DNA from: a virus
Direction: 5' to 3' (one strand)
Virus record (IMG/VR): IMGVR_UViG_3300026484_000053
Span: 1-64,000 of that record
DNA: 64,000 nucleotides
The position numbers and the translations under genes are program-made. Below are positions 14,138 through 58,177 of this stretch, piece by piece (within the stretch, counting starts at the first letter, position 1; each line of letters starts with the position of its first letter). The notes below the pieces were generated by a model. The model made no database searches and was not told the origin of the DNA. It saw only the letters and a list, made by a program, of their open reading frames with translations.

Positions 14138-14668
14138 ATGAAAATAATAATAGAGGGTATAGACAATGTTGGAAAAGACACGCAAATAAGAAACATTATC
14201 AAACATTTTGAAGTACCATTCCAGGTACTTCATTATTACGGATGCCCAATTAAAAACGCTGGCATGAACATAAAATTTACTAAAAAATTGTATCAAGACA
14301 TGTTCTGGAATATAAAAGAAAACGACTATGTTATCTGTAACAGAAGCCATCTTGGCGAGACAGTATATGCACCAATATATCGTTCTTTAGGAGCTGACTG
14401 GATTTTTAATCTAGAGAAAGAATATACAGACGCTTATGACGACTTAATTCTGATAACTATTATCGATAAAGCTAAGAACGTTATTAAAAGAGACGATGGT
14501 TTATCTCTTAGTACAGATAAAAAGCAAAAGAAATTAGAGATTAGTATGTTTAAACAAGCTCATGAAAAATCAAGCATTCAGAACAAGCTTCTAATAAACA
14601 TAAACGGAAAAGACGAGCAAGAAGTTAAAAAAGAAATTATAAACTTCATAGAAACGATAAAAGGATAA
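14138..14668 (+). CDS. deoxynucleoside monophosphate/thymidylate kinase family
   Basis: IIEGIDNVGKDT P-loop and NRSHLGE; directly upstream of the gp42-like gene. Confidence 0.8.
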   Translation: MKIIIEGIDNVGKDTQIRNIIKHFEVPFQVLHYYGCPIKNAGMNIKFTKKLYQDMFWNIKENDYVICNRSHLGETVYAPIYRSLGADWIFNLEKEYTDAYDDLILITIIDKAKNVIKRDDGLSLSTDKKQKKLEISMFKQAHEKSSIQNKLLININGKDEQEVKKEIINFIETIKG

Positions 14669-14670
14669 AC

Positions 14671-15357
14671 ATGCCACAACAAACGCAACAAACGCACCAC
14701 ACGCAACGCATGCAAACATTAAAAGATATTAGACAAGAACTAAAAAGTAAGTACAGTAATAACGACTTCGTTATTGACAAAACAGGTGCTAAAATGGTTG
14801 AAATTATAGGAGCTACATTTATAGCTGATGAAGAAAGCATACTTAGAGATACGTCTCACGAGTACGTACAACGTGAGTTAGAATGGTATAAGTCGCAATC
14901 TTTATACGTAGAAGACATACCAGGAACGACACCTGCTATATGGAATCAAGTTTCTAATACAGACGGCATGATAAACTCAAATTACGGTTGGTGTATCTTT
15001 AGTAATGAAAACGGTAACCAGTATAAAAATGTTAAGAGAGAATTAGAAAGATCTCCGTTGTCTAGACGAGCATCTATGATATATACAAGACCTTCAATGC
15101 ACAAGGATTTTAATAAAGATGGAATGTCTGACTTTATGTGCACGTATGGTAACTCTTTCTTCATTAGAGACAATAAGTTACACAGTCATTACATAATGAG
15201 ATCTAATGACGCTGTATTTGGATATAATAACGACTACGCTTGGGCATTATACGTACAAGACAAACTAGCAAAAGACTTAGATGTACAAGTTGGCGACATT
15301 ATATGGACAGCTAGTAATTTACACGTTTATGAACGTCACTTTGAATATTTAAAATAG
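14671..15357 (+). CDS. gp42: dCMP hydroxymethylase (T4 gp42-like)
   Basis: DKTGAKMVEIIGATFIADE, RELEWYKS, INSNYGW, MIYTRPSM, KDGMSDFMCT and RSNDAVFGYNNDYAW closely match T4 gp42 as recalled. Asp sits at the position that is Asn177 in dUMP-specific ThyA; ThyX is encoded separately. Confidence 0.9.
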   Translation: MPQQTQQTHHTQRMQTLKDIRQELKSKYSNNDFVIDKTGAKMVEIIGATFIADEESILRDTSHEYVQRELEWYKSQSLYVEDIPGTTPAIWNQVSNTDGMINSNYGWCIFSNENGNQYKNVKRELERSPLSRRASMIYTRPSMHKDFNKDGMSDFMCTYGNSFFIRDNKLHSHYIMRSNDAVFGYNNDYAWALYVQDKLAKDLDVQVGDIIWTASNLHVYERHFEYLK

Positions 15358-15404: not shown

Positions 15405-15683
15405 ATGATAGATGAAAAAATAATAGAAGCGCATAACAGAAAAGATACTGCGCAATTTCTTGAAGATCTTTATAAGTTTAAAGAAGAAGTAGCACATGAT
15501 TTATCTCTTATGGATTCTATAATAGAATACTGTAATAGATTTGACATGGATATTACGAAGGTAGGTGAAATGCTCGCTGACCATAAAGAGTTTAAAGAGA
15601 TATTCGAGAAAAGTATTACAAAAACAAAGTATTACCAAGGCGGCGAAATAGAAATAGAAATGGATGAAGAAGAGTGGTTATAA
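15405..15683 (+). CDS. gp33: gp33-like late-transcription coactivator
   Basis: LSLMDSIIEYCNRFDMDI pattern, size, adjacency to a gp59-like gene, acidic C-terminal tail EEEWL. Confidence 0.55.
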   Translation: MIDEKIIEAHNRKDTAQFLEDLYKFKEEVAHDLSLMDSIIEYCNRFDMDITKVGEMLADHKEFKEIFEKSITKTKYYQGGEIEIEMDEEEWL

Positions 15684-25359: not shown

Positions 25360-25812
25360 ATGACAGAAAATAAAGAGATTAAAGAGATTAAAGAGATTAA
25401 AGAAATTAAAGAATTTCAACAAGTAAGACAATGGGCTGCAATCAGAGGTATATCAGGAGCTGAAGAACAGGTGCAATATCAGAGATTCCTTCAAGAGGCA
25501 ATTGAGATACATGAAGCTATGATTGTAGATGACCAAGAAGAATTTATTGATGCTATCGGCGACACAATAGTTACTCTTATTAACTTAGCTAACACTAGAG
25601 GTGCTAAAGCAGAAGATTGTTTAGAAGCAGCTTTTGGAGTTATTAAGCTTAGAAAAGGAATTACTACTGATAAAGGCGACTTTGTAAGATACGCTAAGTT
25701 ACCTACTGACGCTGATAGAGAATGGTGTGACGTTAATCAAGGAAATGCAAATAATCAATACTTTGAAGAATCTCAATTAGACGTTCTTACAAATGTTAAC
25801 TTTAAAAGATAG
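25360..25812 (+). CDS. MazG-like nucleoside triphosphate pyrophosphohydrolase (candidate dCTPase)
   Basis: LQEAIEIHEA...DAIGDTIVTL all-alpha NTP-PPase acidic motifs; substrate inferred from context only. Confidence 0.75.
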   Translation: MTENKEIKEIKEIKEIKEFQQVRQWAAIRGISGAEEQVQYQRFLQEAIEIHEAMIVDDQEEFIDAIGDTIVTLINLANTRGAKAEDCLEAAFGVIKLRKGITTDKGDFVRYAKLPTDADREWCDVNQGNANNQYFEESQLDVLTNVNFKR

Positions 25813-29211: not shown

Positions 29212-29988
29212 ATGACAAACAGAAGCAGAAACAGAGAAATAAAGACTATTACAGTAAGAGAATTAAAATTAAAAAGTGCTTGTAAAGATGGAATGCTGTG
29301 GTTTAAAAACAATATAGGATCTCTAGATGTAGATAAATTAGATTATATTAAAGGTGATTATAATAATTACATAAAGTGGCTTAGAGACAATTTTATAGCT
29401 AAAGGTACCAGTACCTACGATGATAGAGGCAATGAATTAACATGCAAAAATTCAAATGGATACAGTTGGACTAGCACATACGATAATAAAGGAAAACAGT
29501 TAACATTTAAAGATTCAGATGGATACAGTTGGACTAAGACATACAATGATAAAGGAAAACAGTTAATATTTAAAGATTCAGATGGATACAGTTGGACTAA
29601 GACATATGATGATAGAGGCAATCAATTAACATACGAAAAATCAAGTGGCATTATTTGGACTAAGACATATGATGATAAAGGAAACCAGTTAACATTTAAA
29701 GATTCAGATGGACGTAATTGGACTAGCACATACGATGATAGAGGCAATGAATTAACATGCAAAAATTCAAATGGAGACAGCTGGACTAAGACTTATGATG
29801 ATAACGGTAATCAATTAACGTACAAGGATTCAAATAGATACAGTTGGACTAAGACATACGATGATAACGGTAATCAATTAACGTTTAAAGATTCAAATGG
29901 ATACAGTTGGACTAGAACTTACAAGACAACAGATAAAGAATTTATACAGACTTTTAATGGAGAAGTAGAAGTTCATATTATATTTTAA
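29212..29988 (+). CDS. 21-aa repeat protein copy 4 (8 repeats)
   Basis: 68 + 8x21 + 22 aa. Confidence 0.9.
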   Translation: MTNRSRNREIKTITVRELKLKSACKDGMLWFKNNIGSLDVDKLDYIKGDYNNYIKWLRDNFIAKGTSTYDDRGNELTCKNSNGYSWTSTYDNKGKQLTFKDSDGYSWTKTYNDKGKQLIFKDSDGYSWTKTYDDRGNQLTYEKSSGIIWTKTYDDKGNQLTFKDSDGRNWTSTYDDRGNELTCKNSNGDSWTKTYDDNGNQLTYKDSNRYSWTKTYDDNGNQLTFKDSNGYSWTRTYKTTDKEFIQTFNGEVEVHIIF

Positions 29989-38883: not shown

Positions 38884-40125
38884 ATGTCACAAAATAAATT
38901 AAGGTTCTTAAATTACGATCAGGAGTTTAAGTTTCAAGGTTTAAAACAAATGAGAGATACAGATGTTTACACTGTAACAGATAATAACTATTTAGCTAAT
39001 TTAACAACTTCCGAAACAGTACTACATGCTGGTAAAAACACATCTGGTCATAAACATGACGGATTAGACGAAGTGTATATGTTTACTAAAGGACATGGAG
39101 ATATCGAAATAGATCAAGTAAGATTTAGTGTAGAAGCAGGCGATATCGTGCATGTTAAAGGCGGCGAATTCCATAAAGTATTTAATACAGGAACTTCTGA
39201 CCTTATATTTGTAGCAATATTTCAAAAGTATACAAGACCAGAAGACGAAGCTATTAGTTCTACTAAAGGTATTCTGTTAGCAGGTGGAAGTGGCACAAGA
39301 TTAAGCCCTTATACTATTACAAGTTCAAAACAAGAGGCAATTGTGTATTCTAAACCAATGATTTATTATCCTTTAAGTACTCTAATGATGGCTGGTATTA
39401 AAGATATTCTTATTATTTCTACTCCTGTGGATCTTCCTAACTATGAGAAGATGTTAGGAGACGGATCTGATCTGGGAATAAACATAGAGTATAAAGTACA
39501 AGAAAATCCAGGTGGAATAGCTGAAGCATTTATCTTAGGTGAAGACTTTATTGATAATCATGATGTAGCACTTATTCTTGGAGATAATCTTTTCTATGGT
39601 GCAGGATTTACTGAAATACTTGAAGGTGCAAGAAGACAGGCGCAAAATGGTAATGGTGTTATATTTGGATATGAAGTTAAAGACCCTGAGAGGTTCGGAG
39701 TGATTGAAGCCCAAGGTTCAAGAATTATCTCTTTAGAAGAAAAGCCACAACATCCTAAGTCAAATATAGCTTCAGTAGGATTATATTTCTTACCTGCAGA
39801 TTGTGTATCAAAAGCAAAGAACATTAAACCTTCTAAAAGAGGCGAACTTGAAATTACAGATGTTCTTAATGAATTTCTATCTGAAGGAAGACTTCAGTTA
39901 AAAGAACTTGGTAGAGGCTTTGCGTATTTCGATTGCGGTACGATTGAGAGCCTATTTGAAGCTTCAAACTTTGTTAGGACGATTGAGAGTTGCACTAATG
40001 CTAAAATAGGATTAATTGAAGAAGTAGCTTATAACAAAGGTTACATCACAGCGGAGCAGCTTAATAAGTGTAAAAAATACGATAAAGTAGAACTTGGTTA
40101 TTACCTAAAATCGATAGCTCAATAG
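38884..40125 (+). CDS. rmlA: N-terminal cupin fused to glucose-1-phosphate thymidylyltransferase
   Basis: GILLAGGSGTRL, KPMIYYPL, GDNLF, PERFGV, EEKP, SKRGELEITD; the first ~125 aa carry GHKH..DEVY..G.FH cupin motifs. Confidence 0.92.
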   Translation: MSQNKLRFLNYDQEFKFQGLKQMRDTDVYTVTDNNYLANLTTSETVLHAGKNTSGHKHDGLDEVYMFTKGHGDIEIDQVRFSVEAGDIVHVKGGEFHKVFNTGTSDLIFVAIFQKYTRPEDEAISSTKGILLAGGSGTRLSPYTITSSKQEAIVYSKPMIYYPLSTLMMAGIKDILIISTPVDLPNYEKMLGDGSDLGINIEYKVQENPGGIAEAFILGEDFIDNHDVALILGDNLFYGAGFTEILEGARRQAQNGNGVIFGYEVKDPERFGVIEAQGSRIISLEEKPQHPKSNIASVGLYFLPADCVSKAKNIKPSKRGELEITDVLNEFLSEGRLQLKELGRGFAYFDCGTIESLFEASNFVRTIESCTNAKIGLIEEVAYNKGYITAEQLNKCKKYDKVELGYYLKSIAQ

Positions 40126-40249
40126 AGCTGAAAGAGAGATAATTACGGGATCATTAATAATACTATTAATAGTAGCAGCACTAGGATTTGTATTCGGAGA
40201 TGGAGCTTTTGGAGCTAAGCTAGTAAATGCTTTTAATTGGTTAAACACT

Positions 40250-40594
40250 ATGCACTACATTGGGTTTATTATCTTAGGTGTTGTTTCATCTGCGCTGTTT
40301 GTTTTTATGACACTAAGTTCTGGAGCTGTAGCGAGTGATAAATTTGGAAAGCTAGGTACAGCGATAACAGCAGGAGCAGGTGGTATTATAGGAATTGTTA
40401 TTGCTATAATTTTATTAGCTTTTCCAGCCGTTAACATATTTGTAACTTACGAAGTTATGTCACTGATAAACGTTGACGCAACATCGATGTCTGAAATAGG
40501 TCAAGATGCTTGGAATATGATATTCATATACGCTTTAATATTTTTAGCTGCTCTTGGCGTTTCATCTGTTAAGAAGAAGCATTTTAAAGATTAG
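40250..40594 (+). CDS. membrane protein
   Basis: Three hydrophobic segments. Confidence 0.55.
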   Translation: MHYIGFIILGVVSSALFVFMTLSSGAVASDKFGKLGTAITAGAGGIIGIVIAIILLAFPAVNIFVTYEVMSLINVDATSMSEIGQDAWNMIFIYALIFLAALGVSSVKKKHFKD

Positions 40595-40596
40595 AC

Positions 40597-40618
40597 GTGT
40601 ATAACGCACGTTATACAC
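40597..40618 (+). terminator. hairpin GTGTATAACG-CA-CGTTATACAC
   Basis: Perfect inverted repeat between genes. Confidence 0.4.
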
Positions 40619-40651
40619 TCAATAAATAACAATAAAACGTAGGATAAAACA

Positions 40652-41575
40652 ATGGATGGAATAAACATCGTAAACGTAATGAATGACTTAATTACTCATT
40701 ACGGAACAACTTATAACTACACTTGTACAGATAATATTAGTCAAGACGATACAACAATTGTTCTTGACAGTGCTGTCTTCCAGTGTGATGGATCTTTAGT
40801 AGGTCATCCGGTAAGTATAACAATAATAGATAATGTTACTACTGAAGAAGAAGATGACGAAGGTAATACAGTAACTACTACAGAGCAAGTACCCCAAGTT
40901 GTTTTTAGCGGTACCATACAAGAGCACGTATCAGGAACTGAATTCACACTAAGCGGTACTATTAACATCGAAAAGAATGACGATGACTGTGATGGAAGCG
41001 ACTCGTGCCAATTAAATCGAACAGCTACAATAGTTGAGATAGGACTTAATCCTAATGTTCTTAGTTTGTGCAACTCTTGTATAGATCAAATGAATTCTGC
41101 TAACGCTGGTATAATGACAGAGTACTACTTTCCTACAACTCATGATACTTTTACGAAATACGCCGATTGGGCTGAAGAAATGATATCTTATGCAGACTCT
41201 TGGAAAGACCCAGACTTTTTAAACAACAAGATGTCAGATTGGATTGTAAAGATGGAAGCACCGAATACTCCATGCGATTTAATTGGAGAAGCTAATATAA
41301 GTGCTTATATTATTAATATAACATCAATGAAAGATGAAGCGCTACAAATGCAAACTGATATTAAGGCTTACTTCGCTAGGTTAAAAAAGAATATTGTTAT
41401 GTGGAAAGTAGAAGCTAAAATGACGTCAGGACAGCCTTCTGATGGGATTTACGGTTCGTTAAGTTCAGAAAGTAAAGCTAAAGTTGATGACTTGTTAGAT
41501 TACAACGCTGCTCACACAGCTGAAGAATATAATGAATATAAGCAGCAGCTAATGCTTGATCTTAAGATAGACTAA
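40652..41575 (+). CDS. hypothetical late (baseplate-region) protein
   Basis: ATAAATA upstream; coupled to the PAAR gene. Confidence 0.55.
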   Translation: MDGINIVNVMNDLITHYGTTYNYTCTDNISQDDTTIVLDSAVFQCDGSLVGHPVSITIIDNVTTEEEDDEGNTVTTTEQVPQVVFSGTIQEHVSGTEFTLSGTINIEKNDDDCDGSDSCQLNRTATIVEIGLNPNVLSLCNSCIDQMNSANAGIMTEYYFPTTHDTFTKYADWAEEMISYADSWKDPDFLNNKMSDWIVKMEAPNTPCDLIGEANISAYIINITSMKDEALQMQTDIKAYFARLKKNIVMWKVEAKMTSGQPSDGIYGSLSSESKAKVDDLLDYNAAHTAEEYNEYKQQLMLDLKID

Positions 41576-41859
41576 TGCCACCAGTAGTACGATTAGGAGA
41601 TAGCTGCTCAGGATGTTGTGCACCACCTGATGTAGCTGTAGGCGCATCAGGAGATGTGCTTGTAAATGGTATGGGTGCTGTTAGAGTAGGAGATCCTTAT
41701 AATCCACATGCTTGCCCTAAAAGTCCACCTCATGGTAGATCAGGAGCTGCAGGCAGTGGATCAGTAATAGTAAATGGAATGCCAGTTCAGCGAGTAGGAG
41801 ATCCTATAGATTGTGGTGCTTCTTGCGTTGCTGGAAGTGGTAATGTACTTGCTAACTAA
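41575..41859 (+). CDS. PAAR-domain baseplate spike tip protein (gp5.4-like)
   Basis: VVRLGD, VLVNG..AVRVGD..PH, VIVNG.PV.RVGD..DCG. Confidence 0.9.
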   Translation: MPPVVRLGDSCSGCCAPPDVAVGASGDVLVNGMGAVRVGDPYNPHACPKSPPHGRSGAAGSGSVIVNGMPVQRVGDPIDCGASCVAGSGNVLAN

Positions 41860-41876
41860 ATTACGAAAGGTTAAAA

Positions 41877-42197
41877 ATGAATAACAATAATAACAATAAC
41901 AAAGCAGTAGAATGCGACATATTAGACGATATTGAGTGTATAGAAAGACGTGATATTAAAACTATAACAGGTAAAGAACTATTAGATAAAGTACAAATAA
42001 CGTACGATAGTGTTAAAGATCTTATTATAGTAAATACAGATAGCTCTTTGATAATTAAGTGTAATAATGTAGTTATAGCTAGTAATACAGATATAGTGAT
42101 GTTATCTGGAGATGCAGTAGGCGCAAAAGGTAACATACAACTTAATCCTACAGGTTTTAAAGGATTATTTAAAAAGATGCTTAATCTCTTAAATTAA
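41877..42197 (+). CDS. hypothetical protein
   Basis: AAAGGT RBS; poly-Asn N-terminus. Confidence 0.55.
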   Translation: MNNNNNNNKAVECDILDDIECIERRDIKTITGKELLDKVQITYDSVKDLIIVNTDSSLIIKCNNVVIASNTDIVMLSGDAVGAKGNIQLNPTGFKGLFKKMLNLLN

Positions 42198-42203
42198 TAT
42201 TAA

Positions 42204-42225
42204 TTTAATATTAGTATGTTATAAT
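42204..42225 (+). promoter_or_regulatory. early promoter with the shared CTATCTAAAAATAAAGGT leader
   Basis: TTTAA...ATGTTATAAT. Confidence 0.7.
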
Positions 42226-42251
42226 ATACTATCTAAAAATAAAGGTTCAAC

Positions 42252-42479
42252 ATGAATTTAAGTAAAAAAATAACAATAGGTGCTAAAATAACTAAAAGTG
42301 CATTTAAAATAGGATTGGTTATTAAGCTACCAAAATTAGGTTCTAAATGGACTATAACTGCGATTGAAGATAATGTAGCTACTCTACTAAGAGAAGACGA
42401 GCAAATGGAAAGAAAAATCAATTATGCAAACATAAATAAATCATGGAGAACAGCTTCTGACACGCTGTGTGATAGTTAA
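42252..42479 (+). CDS. hypothetical protein
   Basis: Follows promoter and RBS. Confidence 0.6.
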   Translation: MNLSKKITIGAKITKSAFKIGLVIKLPKLGSKWTITAIEDNVATLLREDEQMERKINYANINKSWRTASDTLCDS

Positions 42480-42688
42480 TGAGAAATGATAAGCATTATT
42501 TAAGCATCTTAGAACAGTTTGCTGTAGTTAGTAAAGCCTCAGTATCATTTAAAAATGGATTCTACGTAGTAAAGGTGCAAGGAATTTGTAAAGAACAAAA
42601 AGATAAAATTTTAAATACAAGTTACAAACATAAAAAAGTTTCATACGAAGTTCTTAAAAGAATTAAATACACCATAAATACACTGTAA
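42479..42688 (+). CDS. hypothetical protein
   Basis: TAATG coupling. Confidence 0.55.
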   Translation: MRNDKHYLSILEQFAVVSKASVSFKNGFYVVKVQGICKEQKDKILNTSYKHKKVSYEVLKRIKYTINTL

Positions 42689-42711
42689 CTGCACTAGTAA
42701 ATGATAAGTAA

Positions 42712-42876
42712 ATGCTAAGTAACAGAATAAAATTTATGATAACTATGGTAACTATTATGACGTTTGTATTATTGTACATGGTATATACCTTAATAGGGTG
42801 GTTAATTATAGGAGCAGTATTTTTTGGACTTGTTGTATCTACAATGATAACAACATCTCTATTTAACACTAATTAA
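42712..42876 (+). CDS. 54-aa membrane peptide (not in the ORF track)
   Basis: MLSNRIKFMITMVTIMTFVLLYMVYTLIGWLIIGAVFFGLVVSTMITTSLFNTN; co-oriented with its neighbours. Confidence 0.45.
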   Translation: MLSNRIKFMITMVTIMTFVLLYMVYTLIGWLIIGAVFFGLVVSTMITTSLFNTN

Positions 42877-42891
42877 AAATAAAGGAAAGAA

Positions 42892-43887
42892 ATGGATGTA
42901 GAAAAAGTACGAAGTGCAGAAGGCGTAGAAGGCGTACTATGCGCAGAAAAGGTAATACTTGTTACTGGAGGATATGGTTTTATCGGCAGTAACTTCATTA
43001 GATATATGATCGACACGCATAATTATAAGATAGTTAATGTAGATATTTGCACTTACGCTGCAAATGAAAATAACTTAAATGGTTATACTACATCTCCGCA
43101 ATACGTGGAGTACATAAACGATATATGCGATGCTGATGCTATAAGTAAAATTATTAAAAGAGAAAATGTAACAGATATCATACATTTTGCTGCTGAATCC
43201 CATGTAGATATGTCACTAAAAGATCCTAACTTATTTGTTCGAACAAATGTTCTTGGAACGAGTGTATTATTAGAAGCTTTTAAAAGTAACAATTTAACAG
43301 GTAGGTTCCACCACGTTGGTACTGACGAAGTATACGGTGACTTACCTTTTGACACTTCAATGTTTACAGAAGAAACGCCTTATAACCCTAGTAGTCCTTA
43401 TAGCGCTTCTAAAGCTGCATCTGACATGTTAGTTAAATCTTTTAACAGATCTTTTAACATGAACTGTACTATAAGTAATTGCAGCAATAATTACGGTCCA
43501 AGGCAAGACAATACAAAGCTAATCCCTAAGGTTATTGAAAAAACTATTAAAGGCGAAGCGATTCCTGTTTATGGTACTGGAAGTAATGTAAGAGATTGGC
43601 TGTATGTTTTAGATCATTGTAAAGCTATAGATGTTATTTTTCACAAAGCGCAACCTGGTAGTCAATACCTTATAGGTGGAAGAAATGAAAGAACAAATCT
43701 TGACATAATTCATAATATATTTGACATTATGAAGAGCGGCGACATTGAATTTGTAGAAGACAGAGCAGGACATGATAGAAGATACGCTATAAATGCAGCA
43801 AAACTTGAAAATGAACTTGGTTGGAAAGCTGAAGAAACATTCGAAACTGGTATTGTGAAAACGATAAAGTGGTATAAAAGGAGATAA
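42892..43887 (+). CDS. rmlB: dTDP-glucose 4,6-dehydratase
   Basis: VTGGYGFIGSNF, HFAAESHVD, GTDEVYG, YSASK, NCSNNYGP, RAGHDRRYA. Confidence 0.95.
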   Translation: MDVEKVRSAEGVEGVLCAEKVILVTGGYGFIGSNFIRYMIDTHNYKIVNVDICTYAANENNLNGYTTSPQYVEYINDICDADAISKIIKRENVTDIIHFAAESHVDMSLKDPNLFVRTNVLGTSVLLEAFKSNNLTGRFHHVGTDEVYGDLPFDTSMFTEETPYNPSSPYSASKAASDMLVKSFNRSFNMNCTISNCSNNYGPRQDNTKLIPKVIEKTIKGEAIPVYGTGSNVRDWLYVLDHCKAIDVIFHKAQPGSQYLIGGRNERTNLDIIHNIFDIMKSGDIEFVEDRAGHDRRYAINAAKLENELGWKAEETFETGIVKTIKWYKRR

Positions 43888-43888
43888 A

Positions 43889-44350
43889 ATGCGTGGACAA
43901 ATATTACAATATTTGTTAGACAGTGATAAGAAGATTAAAGGTGCTGTATTAATAGGTTCTAGATCTATTAATGTACATGCAGAAAAGTCTGATTGGGATT
44001 TCTGTGTAGACATTGAAATGTGGGATAAGATAACTTATGATGTTGAAGTAGAGTATGGTGGATCAGGTCAAGACACTAATATTATGAGAAATATTGATTC
44101 TTGCAAGTTTACAGAAAACGGTGAAGTAATTAATTTAATATTATTTGATGAATACGGTATGACTAATCAAAGACGTATAAACGCTATTATGAAAAATTTA
44201 CAAGATGCTGTTAGCTATAAAAATGTTAGGCATCAGATAAACGAGGCTATAACTGATCTTATTTACGATGGTAGGCCTATAAGAGGTGAAGGTCATAATA
44301 GTGCGTTAAGAAGTTTAACAATACAAGACGATGACGAAGTACCATTTTAG
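43889..44350 (+). CDS. Pol-beta-superfamily nucleotidyltransferase-like protein
   Basis: LIGSRS...SDWDF motif; C-terminus DDDEVPF. Confidence 0.6.
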   Translation: MRGQILQYLLDSDKKIKGAVLIGSRSINVHAEKSDWDFCVDIEMWDKITYDVEVEYGGSGQDTNIMRNIDSCKFTENGEVINLILFDEYGMTNQRRINAIMKNLQDAVSYKNVRHQINEAITDLIYDGRPIRGEGHNSALRSLTIQDDDEVPF

Positions 44351-44359
44351 GAGATATAA

Positions 44360-45439
44360 ATGAACGAGAATAAACCTCAAATAATATCGATGCACCAGAA
44401 GATAACTTCTTTTAAGAAAGGACAATCCTACACGCATTTACATACAGAGCATATAGCTTCTGTAATAGGTGCAGATGTAAAGTATGACGGAATATACGAT
44501 GATAAGTCGCCTACTTACGTTTACTTAGGTGCAGATTACTTTCCGGTGCTGCCTAATGGAAAGGAGAAAGCTATAAATCTTTACGGTGGACTTACAGAAG
44601 CTTATTATAAGTACTTCGAAAAGTTCGCGTTAAATAAAGCTACGTCTTATATATTAGATTACCCTGTACCTAAAGGATTTTTAAATGCTTTAGTAAAAAG
44701 AGCTGAAAATAAAAGTGCAAGTACATATAAAGGTGCTGAAGTAGAAGTATTAAAAGAATTACGAAATAAGTGCTTAAATTCTACAGTAGTTACCCAAGAA
44801 GATCTTGTAACAGAATCTAATTCTAATATGATGTTTGGCGACTCGCATTCAATTAGTATGACACCAGGTGGAGTACCTTGTACTAAAATAGGTGGAAGAA
44901 CTTTATTCGGTGCAGTTAAAAATAACGTTATTGTGAACGACTTTGGGAAAACTAAAGCTAAACATATTCTTCTTATGATGGGAAGCATAGATATTAGACA
45001 CCACATGTTTAGACAAGAAGATCCTTTTGGTAATATGAAAGAACTTCTTAATGCATATATGAAACAATGCATAGAGCTAGTAAAAAATGGTAAAAGCGTA
45101 GAAATATGCGCACCTGTGCCTATAGAAACAGAAACTAGGAAATTCAGTAAGGATAATGCTTATCCACCAAGAAGTGGAATATTCTTTCACGGTTCTAGAG
45201 AAGAAAGATTGTCATTAACATTATTCTTTATAGACGAAATACGAAGACTTATAGCTCATTTTGGCTATAATGAATCTATAACTCTTTCTACATATCCAGA
45301 AGAATGGTATACAATGAATCCAGCTGATTATGAAACTAAAATGGAAAGAGTAAAAGGAAGTCACGTTAGTATGCTTAATTGCAGAAGACTTAACTTTGGA
45401 AAAATAGGAGATGAAAATGATGAACACGAAGAATGGTAA
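44360..45439 (+). CDS. SGNH-like protein, candidate DNA-sugar modifying enzyme
   Basis: MFGDSHS, GSIDIRHH and C-terminal SHVS; N-half INLYGG echoes the BGT NFFGG motif; resembles a family recalled from T4-like phages with sugar-modified DNA (unverified). Confidence 0.5.
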   Translation: MNENKPQIISMHQKITSFKKGQSYTHLHTEHIASVIGADVKYDGIYDDKSPTYVYLGADYFPVLPNGKEKAINLYGGLTEAYYKYFEKFALNKATSYILDYPVPKGFLNALVKRAENKSASTYKGAEVEVLKELRNKCLNSTVVTQEDLVTESNSNMMFGDSHSISMTPGGVPCTKIGGRTLFGAVKNNVIVNDFGKTKAKHILLMMGSIDIRHHMFRQEDPFGNMKELLNAYMKQCIELVKNGKSVEICAPVPIETETRKFSKDNAYPPRSGIFFHGSREERLSLTLFFIDEIRRLIAHFGYNESITLSTYPEEWYTMNPADYETKMERVKGSHVSMLNCRRLNFGKIGDENDEHEEW

Positions 45440-45845
45440 GGTAGAGAATTCTCTACCTGAAATTACAAATTTTAATGTACTTGGAGACAATCGAGGTAAT
45501 TTAGTAGCAATAGAGCAAAATAAAGATGTACCGTTTGATATTAGAAGAGTATTTTACGTATACGGTACGTCAGATGAGCCGAGAGGTTTTCATGCGCATC
45601 ACTTAACTAAGCAAGCGTTAATATGCTTACAAGGTTCTGTTACAATTGAATTAGACAATGGTACAGATAAAAGAGAGTACTTATTAGACTCTAAAGATAA
45701 AATGCTTATACAAGATAAAATGGTATGGGGAGTTAATAAGAACTTTAGTAAAGATTGCATATTGTTAGTACTTTCGAATATGTCATACGTTAAAGAAGAT
45801 TATATCACTGACTATGAAAAATTTAAATCAATAACGGCGCACTAG
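45411..45845 (+). CDS. fdtA: dTDP-4-keto-6-deoxyglucose 3,4-ketoisomerase (FdtA/QdtA cupin)
   Basis: [23 protein letters not shown]...RGFHAH, CLQGS. Confidence 0.9.
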
Positions 45846-46348
45846 TGAGAGGTGCAAACGTTGACATAACTTGCAGTATACATTGCAGCTCTGATGTTAG
45901 TAAAGATGCGCAAGTTGGTAAATTCACTAACATTTGGCAGTTTTGCACTATTATGCGTGGAGCAAGAGTAGGTTCAAGATGTAATATTAACATGAATGTT
46001 CTTGTAGAGACAGGTGGAATAGTAGGAGATAATTGTACTATTAAACCAGGTGTGCAAATTTGGGATGGAATAGTTATAGAAGATGACGTTTTTATAGGTC
46101 CTAATGCGACGTTTACTAATGACGTTTATCCTAAAAATAAAGTGCATTTAAAAGAAAACGAGTCGTATCCTGTAACTACAGTTTGTAAAGGAGCTTCAAT
46201 AGGTGCTAATGTAACTATACTACCTGGTATAACAATTGGAGAGAATTCACTTATTGCAGCTGGTAGTATAGTTACAAAAGACGTGCCTGCAAATAGTGTT
46301 TATAGAAATGAAGTAAAAAGTGTTGTTACTTTAATTAATAAAGACTAA
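45845..46348 (+). CDS. left-handed beta-helix sugar N-acetyltransferase (WxcM/FdtD N-domain-like)
   Basis: [47 protein letters not shown] hexapeptide repeats. Confidence 0.88.
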
Positions 46349-46655
46349 TATTTGGTAAAGTTTTTGATAAAAATTGGTAGAAAATTGGTAAAGTACTTAT
46401 AAAATATTACTTAAATGTAAAGTAGTTTGTTAATTAAAAATACGAAGTAACGCAGGTAGTACTCTTGGGCTAAACCGTTTAATTTTTAAATTAAAACCGT
46501 ATGAGCAGTTCTGGTGTTACGCTGCGTAAAAGCATACTGCGCGGCACCTTTAAAGATATAATTTATGGCTGTATTATAATATGTGTAATATATGCATATG
46601 TAATATATGTAATATCTTTAACAGCGCTGCGTAACAGTGCAGTTTAACAGTGCAG

Positions 46656-46689
46656 TTTAACAACCATTTAATAATAACTATGTTATAAT
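46656..46689 (+). promoter_or_regulatory. early promoter for the fdtB-bgt operon
   Basis: TTTAA-N6-TTTAA...ATGTTATAAT. Confidence 0.7.
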
Positions 46690-46738
46690 AACATAAATAA
46701 TAACGTAAATACAGCAAAATACAACTTAAAGGAATAAT

Positions 46739-47863
46739 ATGCAAGAAGAAAAAGTAAAGTTTTTAGACATTGGTGCTATAAACTCAAGAGATGAAGCACA
46801 GCTACAAGATGCAGCTAACAGAGTAATTAAATCAGGATGGTACTTAAACGGTAAAGAAAATGAACTATTTGGTAAAGAATTTTCTGAAATTATTGGTACT
46901 AATTATTGCGTACCTTTAGGTAATGGATTAGAAGCACTAGAGATTACTATTAGGGCATATAAAGAATTAGGTTTGTTTAAAGACAATGACGAGATTCTTG
47001 TACCAGCTAACACTTATATTGCTACAATATTAGCGATATCTGAAAATGGTTTAGTACCTGTTCTTATTGAACCAGGCGAAGATCATCTTATAGACGTAAA
47101 CAGATTAGAAAACGAAATTAACGATAAAACAGTTTGCATTTTACCTGTTCACCTTTATGGTAAAACGTGCGACATGAAAACCATAAATGATATCGCTTAC
47201 AGATACGATTTAATTGTTATAGAAGATTGCGCACAGTCGCATTATAGTAAAGACGATCAAGGTAATGTATCTGGTAGTACGTCAGATGTGGGTTGCTTTA
47301 GCTTTTACCCAGGTAAGAATCTTGGTGCGTTAGGTGACTCAGGTTGCATTTGTACTGACGATTCTCAAGTTGCTCAAATGGTTAAAACTATTTGTAACTA
47401 TGGTAGTAAGAAGAAATACTATAATGAAGTAAAAGGTGTAAACTCAAGAATGGATGAAATTCAAGCAGCGTTCTTAAGAGTTAAATTAACAAGATTAAGA
47501 TCAGATACAGCACTTAGACAAAAAGTAGCGCAATTCTACATGAATAATATTGAAAACGTAGATTGTTTACCTAAAATTGGTACTTTAAGTCAACATGCTT
47601 TTCATTTGTTTGTATTAACGATTCAAAATAGAGAAGCATTTATTGAATTTTTAGCTGCTAAAGGCATTGAAACACTTATACATTATCCTGTTGCACCGTT
47701 TAATCAACAATGCTATAAAGATGAATTCTTTCCAAAGGATTTTCCTATAACAGCTGAAATACACGATAAAATAATTTCAATACCTTTAAGCCCTGTAATA
47801 ACACTTAAAGAGCAACAAAGAGTAGTAGATGCTATTAACTCTTATTTTAAAGAGTCTTTATAA
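46739..47863 (+). CDS. fdtB: DegT/DnrJ PLP aminotransferase (dTDP-3-amino-3,6-dideoxyhexose transaminase, FdtB/QdtB-like)
   Basis: LGNGLEAL, VPANTYIAT, PVHLYG, EDCAQSH, SFYPGKNLGALGD, GVNSRMDEIQAA, LIHYP. Confidence 0.9.
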   Translation: MQEEKVKFLDIGAINSRDEAQLQDAANRVIKSGWYLNGKENELFGKEFSEIIGTNYCVPLGNGLEALEITIRAYKELGLFKDNDEILVPANTYIATILAISENGLVPVLIEPGEDHLIDVNRLENEINDKTVCILPVHLYGKTCDMKTINDIAYRYDLIVIEDCAQSHYSKDDQGNVSGSTSDVGCFSFYPGKNLGALGDSGCICTDDSQVAQMVKTICNYGSKKKYYNEVKGVNSRMDEIQAAFLRVKLTRLRSDTALRQKVAQFYMNNIENVDCLPKIGTLSQHAFHLFVLTIQNREAFIEFLAAKGIETLIHYPVAPFNQQCYKDEFFPKDFPITAEIHDKIISIPLSPVITLKEQQRVVDAINSYFKESL

Positions 47864-49074
47864 TGAATATACTTTTAATGAAAATAGGTGGCAGAATTAA
47901 CACCGGTACTAGAAAACCTACTAATGGTAATGCTGGAGAGAATAAACTTATAGTAGAATTATTTTTAAAAGGTGGCCATAATGTGACGTTATGCACTAAA
48001 TACGTAAAAGGAGATGATCCTGAGACTTATTTCGGATCTAATAAAGTCTCTGCAGTTGATCTGGCATTAATTGATGACGTTAATAATATAGATATGAGTA
48101 AGTATGACAAGCTGGTAGTTATTAATGGAAGCAAGAATTTCTTTGGTGGACAAGATGGTGGAATATGCGCTACGTATAAAGTTCTTAACACATTTCCTAA
48201 AGAAGTAATATTCTTCTATACAGACCCTCTATTAACGCTTTCTCAAGTTTGGAATGATAAATTCGATGAAGCACGTAATCCAGGATGGGGTACAAAATGG
48301 ACTGAATCTGATCTTCTTATTACAAGAAAAGACATAACTCTCTTAGCAGCATCTAAAGGTACTGATCTTACAAAGAAACCATTCGTTGCTAAAGGAATAT
48401 TTACAGACTATAAAGAAATAATTGAATTTGAATGGCAAAAAGCTGTTATATTTGGTAATTCTGTACATGCTAATCCATCTGAAGAAAAGCAAATAGACTT
48501 AATTTATGGTGGATTTTACAGAGGTGGTGCAAGAAGATCGCAAATGATTGAATTTATGTTTGATACAGATTATAATGCTGCATTTTTTGGTAAAATTGAA
48601 GAACATGTATTTAAACTTACTAAAAAAGAGATTGCATCTATTAAAAAATATCCTTCGTTTAAAAAAGAGCTTGGAGACTGGGATTTCTGGAAGAAAGAAA
48701 CTAATAAAGCATACGCTACTATTGTATTTGCTGAAGATACATATTGCGACGCTATTGTTACTATGAGAGTTTATGCAGCAGCATTGAGTAATGTTATAGT
48801 TTTCATTGAAGACAAATATGATTCTAAACACACTATTTTTCCAAATGATACATTCAGAGGCTTTAATTACGTTAAAGATAAAGAAGATTTGTCTAGAAAG
48901 ATGAAGATAATTAAATCATTTACTACAGAGCAATATAATAAAATGTGTAAATCACAGATTAAACAACTTAGAAACGGTACTAAAGATTTATTTAAAGATT
49001 TTAATTCAGCTCTTGGATTAACATTTACAGAGCTTGAAGTTAAAGAATCTTCTGATGAGTTTAGCGACTGGTAA
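47863..49074 (+). CDS. bgt: T4 DNA beta-glucosyltransferase homolog (GT-B DNA glycosyltransferase)
   Basis: Collinear with T4 BGT as recalled: YDKLVVINGSKNFFGG, FYTDPLLTLSQVW, DLIYGGFYRGGARRSQMIEFMFDT...FFG, VTMRVY...IEDKYDSKH. TAATG overlap with fdtB. Confidence 0.85.
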   Translation: MNILLMKIGGRINTGTRKPTNGNAGENKLIVELFLKGGHNVTLCTKYVKGDDPETYFGSNKVSAVDLALIDDVNNIDMSKYDKLVVINGSKNFFGGQDGGICATYKVLNTFPKEVIFFYTDPLLTLSQVWNDKFDEARNPGWGTKWTESDLLITRKDITLLAASKGTDLTKKPFVAKGIFTDYKEIIEFEWQKAVIFGNSVHANPSEEKQIDLIYGGFYRGGARRSQMIEFMFDTDYNAAFFGKIEEHVFKLTKKEIASIKKYPSFKKELGDWDFWKKETNKAYATIVFAEDTYCDAIVTMRVYAAALSNVIVFIEDKYDSKHTIFPNDTFRGFNYVKDKEDLSRKMKIIKSFTTEQYNKMCKSQIKQLRNGTKDLFKDFNSALGLTFTELEVKESSDEFSDW

Positions 49075-52807: not shown

Positions 52808-53455
52808 ATGATACTATTACCACAAATTATTGAAGATTCAGGAAGAGGAAAGAGAGCGTATGACTTACCAAGTAAGTTATTCGAAAGCAACATTATAGTT
52901 ATTGAAGGTGAAATTTCAGAAGAATCTATGCAAGCAGCTAAGATGCAACTATTGTATTTAGATAAAAAGCCACAATGTACAGAGATTGAAATTTACATTT
53001 CATCAGGTGGAGGATCAGTGTATGCTGGTAATGGTTTAATAGACCTTATACAGTTAATAGATACTCCAGTTAATACTACTTGTACTGGTATGATAGCATC
53101 TATGGGTACTCAAATATTTGCATCTGGTACTGGAACTAGAAGATTAATGCCTAGAAGTAGAGTTATGATTCACAGTGTAGGTTCAGGAGCAAGTGGTAAA
53201 TACCAAGACTTACTAATAGAAATGAAAGAAACTGAGTACTTACAAAAGCAGCTTATGCGTGATTTATCTTCGTTTACTAAAGGTAAGACTACTTATGCTA
53301 AAATGTGCAAGTTAACAGATAGAGATAATTGGCTTAATTCAGAAGAAGCTATTGAAATAGGTATTGCTGATGAAATTTTAGAAACGAGAGATCAAAGAAA
53401 AGAAAACGCAGCAATTAGAGCAAACGCAGCAAACGCAGCTAAGGGTGATAAATAA
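52808..53455 (+). CDS. clpP: ClpP protease proteolytic subunit
   Basis: QLLYLD, YISSGGGSV, GMIASMG (Ser), VMIHS (His), RDNWL (Asp). Confidence 0.93.
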   Translation: MILLPQIIEDSGRGKRAYDLPSKLFESNIIVIEGEISEESMQAAKMQLLYLDKKPQCTEIEIYISSGGGSVYAGNGLIDLIQLIDTPVNTTCTGMIASMGTQIFASGTGTRRLMPRSRVMIHSVGSGASGKYQDLLIEMKETEYLQKQLMRDLSSFTKGKTTYAKMCKLTDRDNWLNSEEAIEIGIADEILETRDQRKENAAIRANAANAAKGDK

Positions 53456-55056: not shown

Positions 55057-56697
55057 ATGGCAAAAACGGCAAAAACGGGAAATAACAAAGTTATGAAGAA
55101 AATAAGAAAAGACAATGGAACTACGCAGGATTACAATCCACAAAAATTCCATGAGAAAGTATTCTTTGCACTAGAAGGCTTAAACACTCTGAGTGCATCA
55201 GAAATAGAAATGCAGGCAGCACCTATGATTGTTGATGGTAGTACAAGTAAAGACATCCAAAAAGCACTTGTAGAGGCTACAGCTGATATGATTAGTGAGG
55301 ATTTACCTGAAGCTGAAATAGCAGCAGCGAGATTGTTAAATCAAAGCATTAGAAAAGAAGTATACGGTAAATACGAAGTGCCTACTTTACTTGAAACAGT
55401 TAAGAAAAATATATCTGAAAAAATATACGACGGTAAGTACCTGTTCGATCACTACACAGAAGCAGAAGTACAGAAATTCGGTGAGTACATAAAATACGAC
55501 AGAGACGATAAATTCGTTTATTCTGGACTTAAGAAAACTAAAGATAGTTACTTAGTTAAGAAATATGGTAAACTTCATGAAACTCCTCAAGAAATGTTTA
55601 TGATGATTAACATGTTCGCATTTGCTAAGTATGAAGGTAAAGAGAGAGAGAAATGGGTAAAAGAAGGTTATAATATCTTAAGTAACTTTGAAGCTAGCTT
55701 ACCTACTCCAATTATGATTCAACTTAGAACAATGTTTAGAAGATTCGTGTCATGTAACTTAATACCTTATGGTGATTCTAAAGAAACAATCGCTAACTCA
55801 GCTAAATCTATGCTTACGTTAGTAGCAGGCGGCGCAGGTTTAGGAATTGGTACTGGAGATATTAGAGGACTTGACGCAGATATTGATAATGGTAGAATCA
55901 AGCATACTGGTTTACAACCTATACTTAAAGCTGCTGAGAAGTCAAGTAAAGCATTTGTACAACCAGATAGAGATGGAAGCTGCACAGCGTACTATCCATT
56001 TTATCATGTAGAAATAGAACATATTATGGTTATGGGTAATAATAAAGGTACTGAAGATACTAGAGTTAGAGATATCGACCATGCTATTATTTTTAATGAC
56101 TTATTCTTTGAAAGATATGCTAAAGACGAAGACATTACGCTATTCTTTATGAATGACGTAAAAGATTTGCAAAGTTACAACGGTTACTCAAAAGAATTTA
56201 AAGAGAAATACGAACATTACGAAAGAACTGTACCTAAAAGAAAACAAAAGAAAGTATCAGCTAAAAAGATATTTAATAGATTCTTAGATGAGCAATTTTT
56301 ACAAAGTAGAGAATATTGTTTATTTGCTGACGAATTCCAGAGCCATAGTAGTTTTGATATTCCACTTAAAATCTCAAATCTTTGCGTAAAAGGAGACACG
56401 AGTATTAATATTAAATATAACGACACTTATAGCGTTATTCGAATAGATGAACTACAAAGCTATTTAAATAAATTTGATGTGCAAGTTTTAAGTAGAAATA
56501 TTGATACTGCAGTGAATGAGTATAAAATTATTGAAGACTTCGCTATGACAAACCCTTGCGCTGAATTACTAAAAATAACAGATGAAAATAGTGGTAATTA
56601 CATAGAATGTACGTTAGAACATAAAGTATGGACTGAAAACAGAGGATACGTTGAAGCCCAACATTTAGTTCATGATGATGTTTTAAATATACTATAG
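55057..56697 (+). CDS. nrdA: NrdA N-terminal part (residues 1-442) fused to the N-half of a split intein
   Basis: ATP cone, LPTPIM, SCNL, GAGLGI, then ISNL|CVKGDT...CTLEHKVWTENRGYVEA..L..DDVL. Confidence 0.92.
   Translation: MAKTAKTGNNKVMKKIRKDNGTTQDYNPQKFHEKVFFALEGLNTLSASEIEMQAAPMIVDGSTSKDIQKALVEATADMISEDLPEAEIAAARLLNQSIRKEVYGKYEVPTLLETVKKNISEKIYDGKYLFDHYTEAEVQKFGEYIKYDRDDKFVYSGLKKTKDSYLVKKYGKLHETPQEMFMMINMFAFAKYEGKEREKWVKEGYNILSNFEASLPTPIMIQLRTMFRRFVSCNLIPYGDSKETIANSAKSMLTLVAGGAGLGIGTGDIRGLDADIDNGRIKHTGLQPILKAAEKSSKAFVQPDRDGSCTAYYPFYHVEIEHIMVMGNNKGTEDTRVRDIDHAIIFNDLFFERYAKDEDITLFFMNDVKDLQSYNGYSKEFKEKYEHYERTVPKRKQKKVSAKKIFNRFLDEQFLQSREYCLFADEFQSHSSFDIPLKISNLCVKGDTSINIKYNDTYSVIRIDELQSYLNKFDVQVLSRNIDTAVNEYKIIEDFAMTNPCAELLKITDENSGNYIECTLEHKVWTENRGYVEAQHLVHDDVLNIL
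56383..56694 (+). mobile_element. split intein N-half (104 aa)
   Basis: Block A CVKGDT, block B CTLEH, ends at a stop codon. Confidence 0.9.
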
Positions 56698-56917
56698 AGT
56701 TATGATTAGAGATATTTGCCTCTTTGCCTCTTTAAATTTGCTTATATTAAAGAGCTAAATGATGCATTATGTAAAATTTTATTCTACTTTATATTATATT
56801 GTAAAAGTACAGATATAAACTTAATATAATTTACAATAGATATTATAAAAACTATAAAACGTAAGAAAGAAATAAAAGAAGCTCGTGCAAATAAGCGTAT
56901 AAAAACAAAGGATAAAA

Positions 56918-57016
56918 ATGATAAAGATTGAAAGAATATTAAAAAGAGAGAAAGTGTACGACATTACTGTAGAAGATAACCATAATTTTTATGCTAATAA
57001 CATATTGATACATAAT
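56918..57016 (+). mobile_element. split intein C-half (33 aa)
   Basis: VYDITVEDNHNFYANNILIHN followed by Cys+1; own AAAGGA RBS. Confidence 0.92.
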
Positions 57017-58177
57017 TGTACAGAAATATCGGTACCTATCTTTCCATTAAGAGGTATTTCTATCAGAAGAAATATTAAATTCGATACTGCTCAAGACAGA
57101 GAGCTATACTATGAACTTAGAACTAGTGCCTATTTTCACCAAATAGATGAAAAAGAGCTTAATAAGAAAGTTAAGCAAATGGCTACGTTAGTTAAATTCG
57201 TATCGCAAGATATAAATGCTGAAGTAAATGAAAGCGAAGATTATGATTATTTTGACATAACAGGATTAGTTAATTTAAGTGAAATTGGAGTTTGTATACT
57301 TGGTGGAATTAACGTCGGCCATTGTAAAAGCAACAAAAGATTAGAAATAGTATCAGAGTATCTTGTTAGATTACTTGAAGAGCTAATCGATTATATGGTA
57401 TGGGATTTACCAGAAGCAGAAAAAGCTGCTAAAATGAGAAGAACACTTGGTATTGGATTCAGCGATATTTTCCATGATTTAGCTGTTAACAAAAAATTCT
57501 ACAATACAAGAGAAGGTAGACAATTCATAAGTGATAAAATAGAGTTATGCTCATATGCTATGATTAGAACTTCAGTTGAATTAGCCAAGGAAAAAGGCAA
57601 GTGTCAACTATTCAGCGATACGAAGTACGCTAAAGGTATATTACCTGTAGATACGTATAATAAAAACGTTGATGAGTTAGTAGACGTGTCAAAATTAGAT
57701 TGGCAATGGCTTAGAGAACAAGTACTTAAACATGGTATGAGACACAGCACGCTAATGGCAAACGCACCGTTTGGAAGTTCTAGCATTGTATCTAACTCTA
57801 CACCAGGATTAGAACCACCAAGAGGTATTGAAACTACTAAGAAGAAAGTCACTAAGTTGGTGCCTGACATTAAGAGTAGCAGCAAATATTATACTACAGC
57901 TTGGGGAGATGATTTTAATAATAGCGATTATTTTATGTTCGTTGCAGTATTCCAAAAATGGATGGATCAGACTATAAGTACTAACAAATACGTTAACTTA
58001 CTTAAAGAAGAAAATGGTAAAGTTAAAAAATCTACTCTTATTAAAGAAATGCTTGTGGCTTTATATTTTGGTCTGAAAACAGTATATTACTCAAATATTA
58101 GATCTAACGATGCCAAGGATGGAGAAGATCTGGAAGAAGAGAAAGAATCATGCTCTGGTGGTGGTTGTGAAGTATAA
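56918..58177 (+). CDS. nrdA: intein C-half fused to NrdA C-terminal part
   Basis: CTEI, LGGIN, RTLGIG, RHSTLMANAP..SSS, YYSN, C-terminal CSGGGCEV. Confidence 0.92.
   Translation: MIKIERILKREKVYDITVEDNHNFYANNILIHNCTEISVPIFPLRGISIRRNIKFDTAQDRELYYELRTSAYFHQIDEKELNKKVKQMATLVKFVSQDINAEVNESEDYDYFDITGLVNLSEIGVCILGGINVGHCKSNKRLEIVSEYLVRLLEELIDYMVWDLPEAEKAAKMRRTLGIGFSDIFHDLAVNKKFYNTREGRQFISDKIELCSYAMIRTSVELAKEKGKCQLFSDTKYAKGILPVDTYNKNVDELVDVSKLDWQWLREQVLKHGMRHSTLMANAPFGSSSIVSNSTPGLEPPRGIETTKKKVTKLVPDIKSSSKYYTTAWGDDFNNSDYFMFVAVFQKWMDQTISTNKYVNLLKEENGKVKKSTLIKEMLVALYFGLKTVYYSNIRSNDAKDGEDLEEEKESCSGGGCEV

Follow-up and report, generated by a model that had tools for sequence, protein, structure and literature searches.

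A sugar-donor pathway joined to a T4 beta-glucosyltransferase homolog in a hydrothermal-vent phage: a predicted amino-dideoxyhexosyl modification of 5-hydroxymethylcytosine

The first 64,000 bases of the IMG/VR virus record IMGVR_UViG_3300026484_000053 (this whole stretch is referred to below as the window) carry genes of a pathway for a nucleotide-activated amino-dideoxy sugar, the last of which overlaps the start of a gene for a homolog of T4 beta-glucosyltransferase (BGT), the enzyme that glucosylates 5-hydroxymethylcytosine (hmC) in T4 DNA, and the question raised by this locus is which molecule receives the sugar. The record, 193,700 bases long and rated 100% complete, belongs to a T4-like phage and is contained in one sequencing run only, that of a hydrothermal-vent metagenome; between 36 and 52 kb it differs in no letter from an independent assembly of this run. 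A first-pass annotation made from the letters alone had proposed that the vent phage produces its own deoxythymidine diphosphate (dTDP)-3-amino-3,6-dideoxyhexose, which the BGT homolog puts on hmC. This core proposal is supported here by conserved operons, by a BGT clade devoid of a glutamate that nearly all other homologs keep, by monophyly of the aminotransferase genes linked to BGT and by the fact that no rival transferase was found. The phage-made sugar very probably goes onto phage DNA, and to the more specific reading, in which the predicted product is N-acetylated 3-acetamido-3,6-dideoxyhexosyl-hmC with beta linkage, we assign a probability of about 0.7.

Association of the sugar genes with BGT was assessed among viral relatives. 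The BGT homolog and its closest relatives (38–74% identity) fall into one clade with support 100 in a FastTree phylogeny, from which the fragments P0007 and P0008 were omitted. In all eight clade members for which upstream DNA is available (the vent phage and seven relatives) the gene immediately upstream of BGT is fdtB; among 11 BGT loci outside the clade, including those of T4 and of the nearest outgroup P0065, none has an fdt gene and most have a hydroxymethylase gene. A compact arrangement belongs to L015, where kinase, hydroxymethylase, rmlA, rmlB, fdtA, fdtC, fdtB, BGT and a dUTPase_2-like gene follow one another. The contigs L010-L013 and L018-L019, representing one phage population, contain hydroxymethylase, cupin-rmlA, fdtA, fdtC, fdtB and BGT, with rmlB located 9.5 kb downstream, so that hydroxymethylase, sugar genes and BGT share one operon in two phage lineages other than the vent phage (L010 and L015). 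In L014 and L016 the genes from rmlA through BGT are present in order, and in the short contigs P0009, P0003 and P0002 fdtB directly precedes BGT, although in P0002 the available part of fdtB is limited to its last 43 codons, which were judged by eye. Compared with other viral homologs, the fdtB genes linked to BGT form a clade of their own with support 97 (none of 500 shuffles was as low), and the BGT-linked acetyltransferases form nearly a clade of their own, which fits a module inherited together. These relatives were obtained by alignment-based scans, while single-protein queries with BGT or fdtA against viral contigs gave no matches; in bacterial genome contigs no BGT relatives were found.

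The structure model of the BGT homolog superimposes on T4 BGT (1NZD) with a Z score of 35 and a root mean square deviation (rmsd) of 2.9 over 342 residues, against a Z score of 21 for T4 alpha-glucosyltransferase (alpha-GT) and of at most 19 for other, non-DNA transferases. Asp121 corresponds to catalytic D100, and Arg220, Arg224 and Arg302 correspond to the phosphate-binding R191, R195 and R269, while E272 is replaced by Ala305. According to an alignment of 123 BGT homologs, the clade retains both the catalytic Asp and the arginines that bind phosphate, whereas Glu272, kept by 111 of 115 outside homologs, is present in none of nine clade members (Ala in seven, Tyr in one and Cys in one). Residue 238 (Ile in T4 BGT) is aliphatic in 106 of the 115 outside sequences and Gly in all seven full-length clade members; positions 189 and 243 in the clade are mostly aromatic. 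We take E272 of T4 BGT to contact the ribose hydroxyls of the donor and I238 to contact uracil, and the loss of Glu272 thus fits a 2'-deoxy donor, that is a dTDP-sugar. In T4 alpha-GT the equivalent Glu contacts the ribose of the donor and was called conserved in GT-B enzymes (PMC6024577).

All genes named by the first-pass annotation were recovered by profile and PDB matches in the families and at the positions it had given (Table 1). They comprise the complete Fdt/Qdt pathway, namely RmlA, RmlB, a two-His ketoisomerase, a 3-aminotransferase and an N-acetyltransferase, and the enzymes retain their catalytic residues, whereas a rhamnose pathway was ruled out, as RmlC has no match in the genome. 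The overlap between fdtB stop and BGT start (TAATG) is real as well. The description of 38884-49074 as a cluster holds for the genes and fails for its tidiness: rmlA and rmlB are separated by approximately 2.8 kb of unrelated genes, that for a PAAR-like protein among them; rmlB is followed by two extra genes (43889 and 44360) before fdtA is reached; and fdtC and fdtB, which abut in relatives, are kept apart by an AT-rich gap of 390 bp with short repeats (46349-46738). A promoter scan stayed at chance level (48 found against 53 expected). The RmlA N-terminus contains a Cupin_2 domain (38884-39250), possibly a sugar-phosphate isomerase, that the first-pass annotation had omitted; the same fusion recurs in the operon of L010 with 59% identity.

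Since the fold and the majority of the active-site residues are those of T4 BGT, one may suppose that the enzyme is an ordinary one using uridine diphosphate (UDP)-glucose and producing glucosyl-hmC, with the fdt genes serving, for instance, host surface glycans via host transferases. The usual destination of Fdt/Qdt products is O-antigen or S-layer glycans, and many viral contigs have fdt-like genes and no DNA-modification gene nearby. Yet such an independent destination of the sugar does not agree with the position of fdtB (eight of eight within the clade and none of 11 outside it), with the hydroxymethylase in the same operon of two lineages or with the absence of Glu272 throughout the clade, and neither flippase nor polymerase nor further transferase was seen near the cluster. 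We regard this explanation as very unlikely.

The acceptor base is set by ORF (open reading frame) 14671. Its alignment to 1B49 reveals the catalytic Cys, Asp at the position of ThyA N177, which determines cytosine specificity, and an acidic residue at that of ThyA L143, as in gp42-type enzymes under the residue criteria that separate dCMP hydroxymethylases from 5-hydroxy-dCMP synthases (PMC13326640). ThyA D169, replaced by Asn in every 5-hydroxy-dCMP synthase tested (PMC13326640), is kept in ORF 14671 within the motif RSND, the same as in T4 gp42. Two other assignments were rejected: a 5-hydroxy-dCMP synthase of RB69 gp48 type because of the retained D169, and a thymidylate synthase because the cytosine-specifying Asp is present and ThyX is encoded separately at 61747. 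Together with the candidate kinase adjoining the hydroxymethylase and a gp1-like kinase encoded elsewhere in the genome, these features make hmC the expected acceptor.

Concerning other users of the sugar, profiles of seven Pfam families (GT1, GT2, GT8, GT25, Glyco_trans_1_2, AGT and TAGT) have no match in the whole genome and the BGT profile matches the 47863 gene only, which extends to the complete record the earlier remark that no other glycosyltransferase is visible in the window. It might nevertheless be imagined that the BGT homolog or an undetected transferase attaches the dTDP-sugar to virion or host proteins instead of DNA, since viral glycan genes devoid of DNA-modification neighbours are common, genes for PAAR-like and other unrelated proteins separate rmlA from rmlB, and a large number of ORFs in the genome belong to no known family. 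We consider this highly improbable in view of the full-length relationship to T4 BGT (Z score 35) with the catalytic Asp in place, the tie of the module to dCMP hydroxymethylase in L010 and L015 and the seven transferase families not found in the genome.

Several points weigh against DNA as the destination of the sugar or blur the identity of the final base. The hydroxymethylase of the vent phage is 24 kb away from the sugar genes, and the covered sequence of L014 and L016 does not reach it. Most viral contigs with fdtA- or fdtB-like genes lack a BGT gene in the vicinity, and in many of them neither BGT nor hydroxymethylase is close by, so that these genes are by themselves no sign of DNA modification and have other uses in other viruses. 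The loss of Glu272 represents a single event on the clade stem rather than nine independent ones and therefore supports, and does not prove, the donor switch. The genome may encode a transferase of unknown family at another locus. No gp56-type dCTPase (dUTPase_2, PF08761) is matched in the genome, so that cytosine may be replaced in full or only in part; the MazG-like protein listed in Table 1 is the only candidate found for this role, and in L015 a weak dUTPase_2 match is located just after BGT. CG-rich palindromes are still depleted (CGCG to 0.37 and CCGG to 0.58 of expected), although depletion of restriction sites proved uninformative as a gauge of modification level. The C4 stereochemistry and the acyl group are not safely readable from sequence. 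Finally, no cultured phage carrying the module was found; Streptomyces phage Zuko was discarded as a cultured model, having a lone fdtA-like gene without the remaining genes.

Under the reading that we prefer, hmC would be supplied by the gp42 homolog converting dCMP to hmdCMP, which the adjacent or the gp1-like kinase would phosphorylate so that hmC enters DNA at replication, both steps having strong backing in homology. RmlA and RmlB would yield dTDP-4-keto-6-deoxyglucose, to be turned by ketoisomerase, aminotransferase and N-acetyltransferase into dTDP-3-acetamido-3,6-dideoxyhexose, and for these steps homology to characterised enzymes likewise makes a strong case. Judging by synteny and donor-site changes, the BGT homolog would then flip hmC out and transfer the sugar with inversion, giving beta-linked 3-acetamido-3,6-dideoxyhexosyl-5-hydroxymethyldeoxycytidine (dHexNAc-hmdC). 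T4 BGT is an inverting enzyme, and the beta linkage is expected for that reason. Phage DNA transferases that need a partner sugar enzyme provide a precedent (bioRxiv 10.1101/2023.12.21.572611; PMC13326640). The likely purpose of the sugar would be to shield DNA against host nucleases, but the earlier expectation that it defeats enzymes of GmrSD or PvuRts1I type lacks support, as type IV enzymes were reported to cut several sugar-modified forms of hmC (PMC13326640). The nucleoside masses predicted earlier check out, the computed [M+H]+ values being 445.193 for dHexNAc-hmdC, 403.182 for the free amine, 487.204 with one extra acetyl, 420.161 for glucosyl-hmdC and 258.108 for hmdC.

Two isomers come into consideration, 3-acetamido-3,6-dideoxygalactose (Fuc3NAc) and 3-acetamido-3,6-dideoxyglucose (Qui3NAc). 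The isomerase encoded by the 45411 ORF scores 115 bits with FdtA, 105 with 4ZU4 and 74 with QdtA; its top matches are FdtA 2PA7 and S. denitrificans 4ZU4/4MZU, and it has the WG motif and Phe in common with the S. denitrificans enzyme, the product of which is presumably of galacto type. Scores and motif favour Fuc3NAc in the vent phage, and from sequence this sugar appears more likely than Qui3NAc. Isomerases of L010 and L015 carry WRE in place of WG and branch apart, hinting at isomerase exchange and possibly at differing isomers between phages.

Even if the sugar is placed on hmC, the base may differ from the predicted one as a free amine, another N-acyl form or a product with an extra O-acyl group (or directly acylated hmC) due to ORF 44360, a gene passed over by the first-pass annotation that may alter the final base. 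Its AlphaFold model matches SGNH/GDSL hydrolases with a Z score of 12 and rmsd of 3.1 over 167 residues, the region in question spanning residues 151-345, and Ser162 and His335, retained here, are invariant among 25 homologs. The gene overlaps fdtA and its product carries an acidic-Trp tail. SGNH homologs in L034 and L035 are situated directly after a gp42-type hydroxymethylase and before a PALP-like gene, and those of Aeromonas phages are near UDP-galactopyranose mutase or fused to an HMUDK_hel-like domain. Besides, the acyl-CoA preference of beta-helix transferases is hard to infer from sequence. The SGNH gene is, however, absent from all other fdt-BGT loci compared and hence stands outside the conserved module; every operon has the N-acetyltransferase, which is nearest to characterised N-acetyltransferases; and the partners of the SGNH gene in L034 and L035, a PALP-like gene and a third one, are both lacking in the genome of the vent phage. 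Such a deviating base is, on balance, unlikely, and the N-acetylated product is preferred. ORF 44360 itself may acylate the sugar or hmC or may have remained from a modification system that the phage once had. Its assignment as a second glycosyltransferase was ruled out by the SGNH nature of the C-terminal domain, with the N-terminal 60 residues barely tested; the N-terminal domain compared with BGT gave an hhalign probability of 4% over a match of 22 columns only, around the NLFGG/NFFGG motif.

More broadly, a new lineage of T4-like transferases might have given up UDP-glucose in favour of a dTDP-amino-dideoxy sugar made by the phage, so writing 3-acetamido-3,6-dideoxyhexosyl-hmC, with isomerase swaps possibly giving galacto and gluco forms and with acylation possibly added by the SGNH enzyme, the family of which would mark another hmC modification; this combined scenario is offered tentatively, as something short of an even chance.

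Table 1. Genes of the window considered in the putative synthesis and transfer of the sugar and in the supply of hmC
Feature	Position	Strand	Evidence and remarks
Thymidylate-kinase-like nucleotide kinase, candidate hmdCMP kinase	14138..14668	+	PF02223 E 1e-10; adjoins hydroxymethylase; L015 equivalent in same position, 47% identity
dCMP hydroxymethylase, T4 gp42 type, hmC supply	14671..15357	+	55% identity to T4 gp42; PDB 1B49 E 1e-74
MazG-like pyrophosphatase, putative dCTPase role	25360..25812	+	PHROG 715 E 3e-17
Cupin-RmlA fusion, glucose-1-phosphate thymidylyltransferase	38884..40125	+	NTP_transferase E 2e-63; PDB RmlA E 2e-97
RmlB, dTDP-glucose 4,6-dehydratase	42892..43887	+	family match E 4e-94
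Minimal Pol-beta-type nucleotidyltransferase	43889..44350	+	PF18765 E 2e-5; no match in related operons
SGNH-fold protein, candidate second DNA-modifying (acyl-transfer or esterase) enzyme	44360..45439	+	AlphaFold model; overlaps fdtA start
FdtA/QdtA-type dTDP-sugar 3,4-ketoisomerase	45411..45845	+	PF05523 E 1e-41; both catalytic His present; motif nearest FdtD (galacto) type
Left-handed beta-helix N-acetyltransferase, FdtD/WxcM N-terminal type (fdtC)	45845..46348	+	S. denitrificans WxcM-like 4MZU E 5e-46; N-acetyltransferase 7S43 E 1e-45
FdtB/QdtB-type dTDP-sugar 3-aminotransferase	46739..47863	+	DegT E 2e-90; top PDB matches 7N63, 5U1Z, QdtB 3FRK
T4 beta-glucosyltransferase homolog, distinct clade, predicted DNA 3-acetamido-dideoxyhexosyl transferase	47863..49074	+	PF09198, T4 BGT E 2e-33

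Compared with the pair of T4 gp42 and BGT, the system under study shares the gp42-type hydroxymethylase, the BGT fold and the equivalents of D100, R191, R195 and R269, whereas T4 takes UDP-glucose from the host and has no donor pathway in place of the five-enzyme dTDP-sugar pathway found here; moreover, E272 is lost, the 238-243 loop is altered, and homologs of gp56 and alpha-GT were not found in the genome. The bacterial pathways for dTDP-Fuc3NAc (FdtABC, FdtD) and dTDP-Qui3NAc (QdtABC) use the same enzyme set, the nearest structures being 2PA7, 4MZU/4ZU4, 7S43, 7N63 and 3FRK, but serve O-antigen, S-layer and capsule through surface-glycan transferases, while the sole transferase found here is of DNA type. 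Clusters for arabinosyl-5-hydroxycytosine in RB69 and DLP3 and the galactosyl cluster of RL38JI (PMC13326640) also combine phage-encoded base synthase, kinase, donor pathway and a GT-B DNA transferase; their base comes from a 5-hydroxy-dCMP synthase with D169N, the donor is predicted to be of UDP type, the sugar is a neutral pentose or hexose and the transferases belong to other families, in contrast to the vent phage with its retained D169 (hmC), dTDP amino-dideoxy donor and BGT-related transferase. TET-associated clusters decorate hmC with unusual sugars (N-acetylhexosamine, hexuronic acid, heptose and 3-deoxy-D-manno-octulosonic acid), often with the aid of a partner sugar enzyme, but there a methyltransferase and TET produce hmC on the DNA itself; deoxy- or 3-amino sugars were not reported, and the text does not mention "rml", "aminotransferase" or "acetyltransferase" (bioRxiv 10.1101/2023.12.21.572611). 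In the oligosaccharide-modified thymidine systems of Carin-5, YerA41 and SP-15 a phage block similarly joins an RmlA-like enzyme with glycosyltransferases, and dTDP-glucose was proposed as the starting donor for Carin-5, although in these phages thymidine bearing a pentyl linker is modified, by transferases of unrelated kinds, and fdt genes are not described (PMC12686479).

Sugars from phage-made donors on phage cytosine are thus already known; new would be the predicted base and a T4-type glycosylation that fails the Glu272 test for a UDP-glucose BGT. The literature searched describes neither DNA that carries a 3-amino-3,6-dideoxy sugar nor this BGT clade, an earlier bioinformatic mention, for example in the computational survey of DNA modification systems from 2013, being possible. 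If the preferred reading is true, an amino-dideoxy sugar of O-antigen type would reside on cytosine as a DNA base not found in that literature, and the family of T4 BGT, the standard reagent for 5hmC labelling, would naturally include users of a dTDP donor, with the loss of Glu272 as a marker for similar enzymes. Modification-dependent nucleases and CRISPR systems could then also be probed with a new class of substrates for the way in which they read sugar chemistry. The compact pathway of L015, a nine-gene operon, can be rebuilt in E. coli, which renders the claim directly testable.

Within the BGT family some further arrangements were observed. A clade BGT at L016:3490-4290 is devoid of approximately 120 N-terminal residues right after an intact fdtB, due to either true deletion or assembly error. 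A gene of the C5 DNA-methylase family follows BGT in several clade members (L010:11181-12383, L017:824-2023 and L022 downstream of 1262), and none was found in the genome of the vent phage. Outside the clade, BGT homologs are located beside CofD-like, IspD-like and kinase genes (L032:1884-5976, L031:816-4251), and such neighbours suggest more non-glucose donors within the family.

The SGNH family is large in viruses, with clusters of more than 1,300 viral members, and is represented in the cultured Aeromonas phages 44RR2.8t, 31, 25 and phiAS4. A recurring module consisting of gp42-type hydroxymethylase, SGNH protein, PALP-like enzyme and a third unknown gene was noticed at L034:7303-10922 and L035:7315-11043, with homologs at L008:5860-8247 and L009:3580-6852. 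The hydroxymethylase-SGNH-PALP-like module probably constitutes a separate, undescribed hmC modification. The presence of this family beside hydroxymethylases is a pointer to another unexplored cytosine modification.

The acidic-Trp C-terminal tail mentioned for ORF 44360 is borne by nine of 206 ORFs, namely DNA polymerase, late sigma factor, RNase H, a 92-residue protein, portal, two unknowns, BGT and ORF 44360; tail-bearing ORFs occupy 9985-11211, 15405-15683, 27505-28749, 44360-45439 and 47863-49074 in the window and 70399-71910 and 165953-166915 in the genome. It resembles the tails by which T4 proteins of replication and late transcription bind the clamp and is a candidate sliding-clamp-binding motif; that BGT shares it with DNA polymerase, late sigma factor and RNase H counts in favour of DNA as its substrate. 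The clamp is bound by T4 alpha-GT and not by T4 BGT (PMC13216743). The tail of BGT is not conserved through the clade.

With respect to the host, the major capsid protein has 38–40% identity to capsid proteins of large Vibrio and Campylobacter T4-like phages, and Campylobacterota are plausible from the habitat. A gene with repeats of 21 residues (WTKTYDD type) occurs in several near-identical copies, at 6047-7078, 22838-23995 and 29212-29988 of the window and at both contig ends, and since both ends fall inside such a gene, the genome is probably circularly closed at that point. Homologs of SmpB, ClpX and ClpP, host-like by sequence, are encoded at 5514-5963, 21153-22442 and 52808-53455 of the window. 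The large subunit of ribonucleotide reductase is divided into two ORFs with an intein fragment (window 55057-58177), and DNA polymerase is likewise represented by two ORFs (genome 163636-166915).

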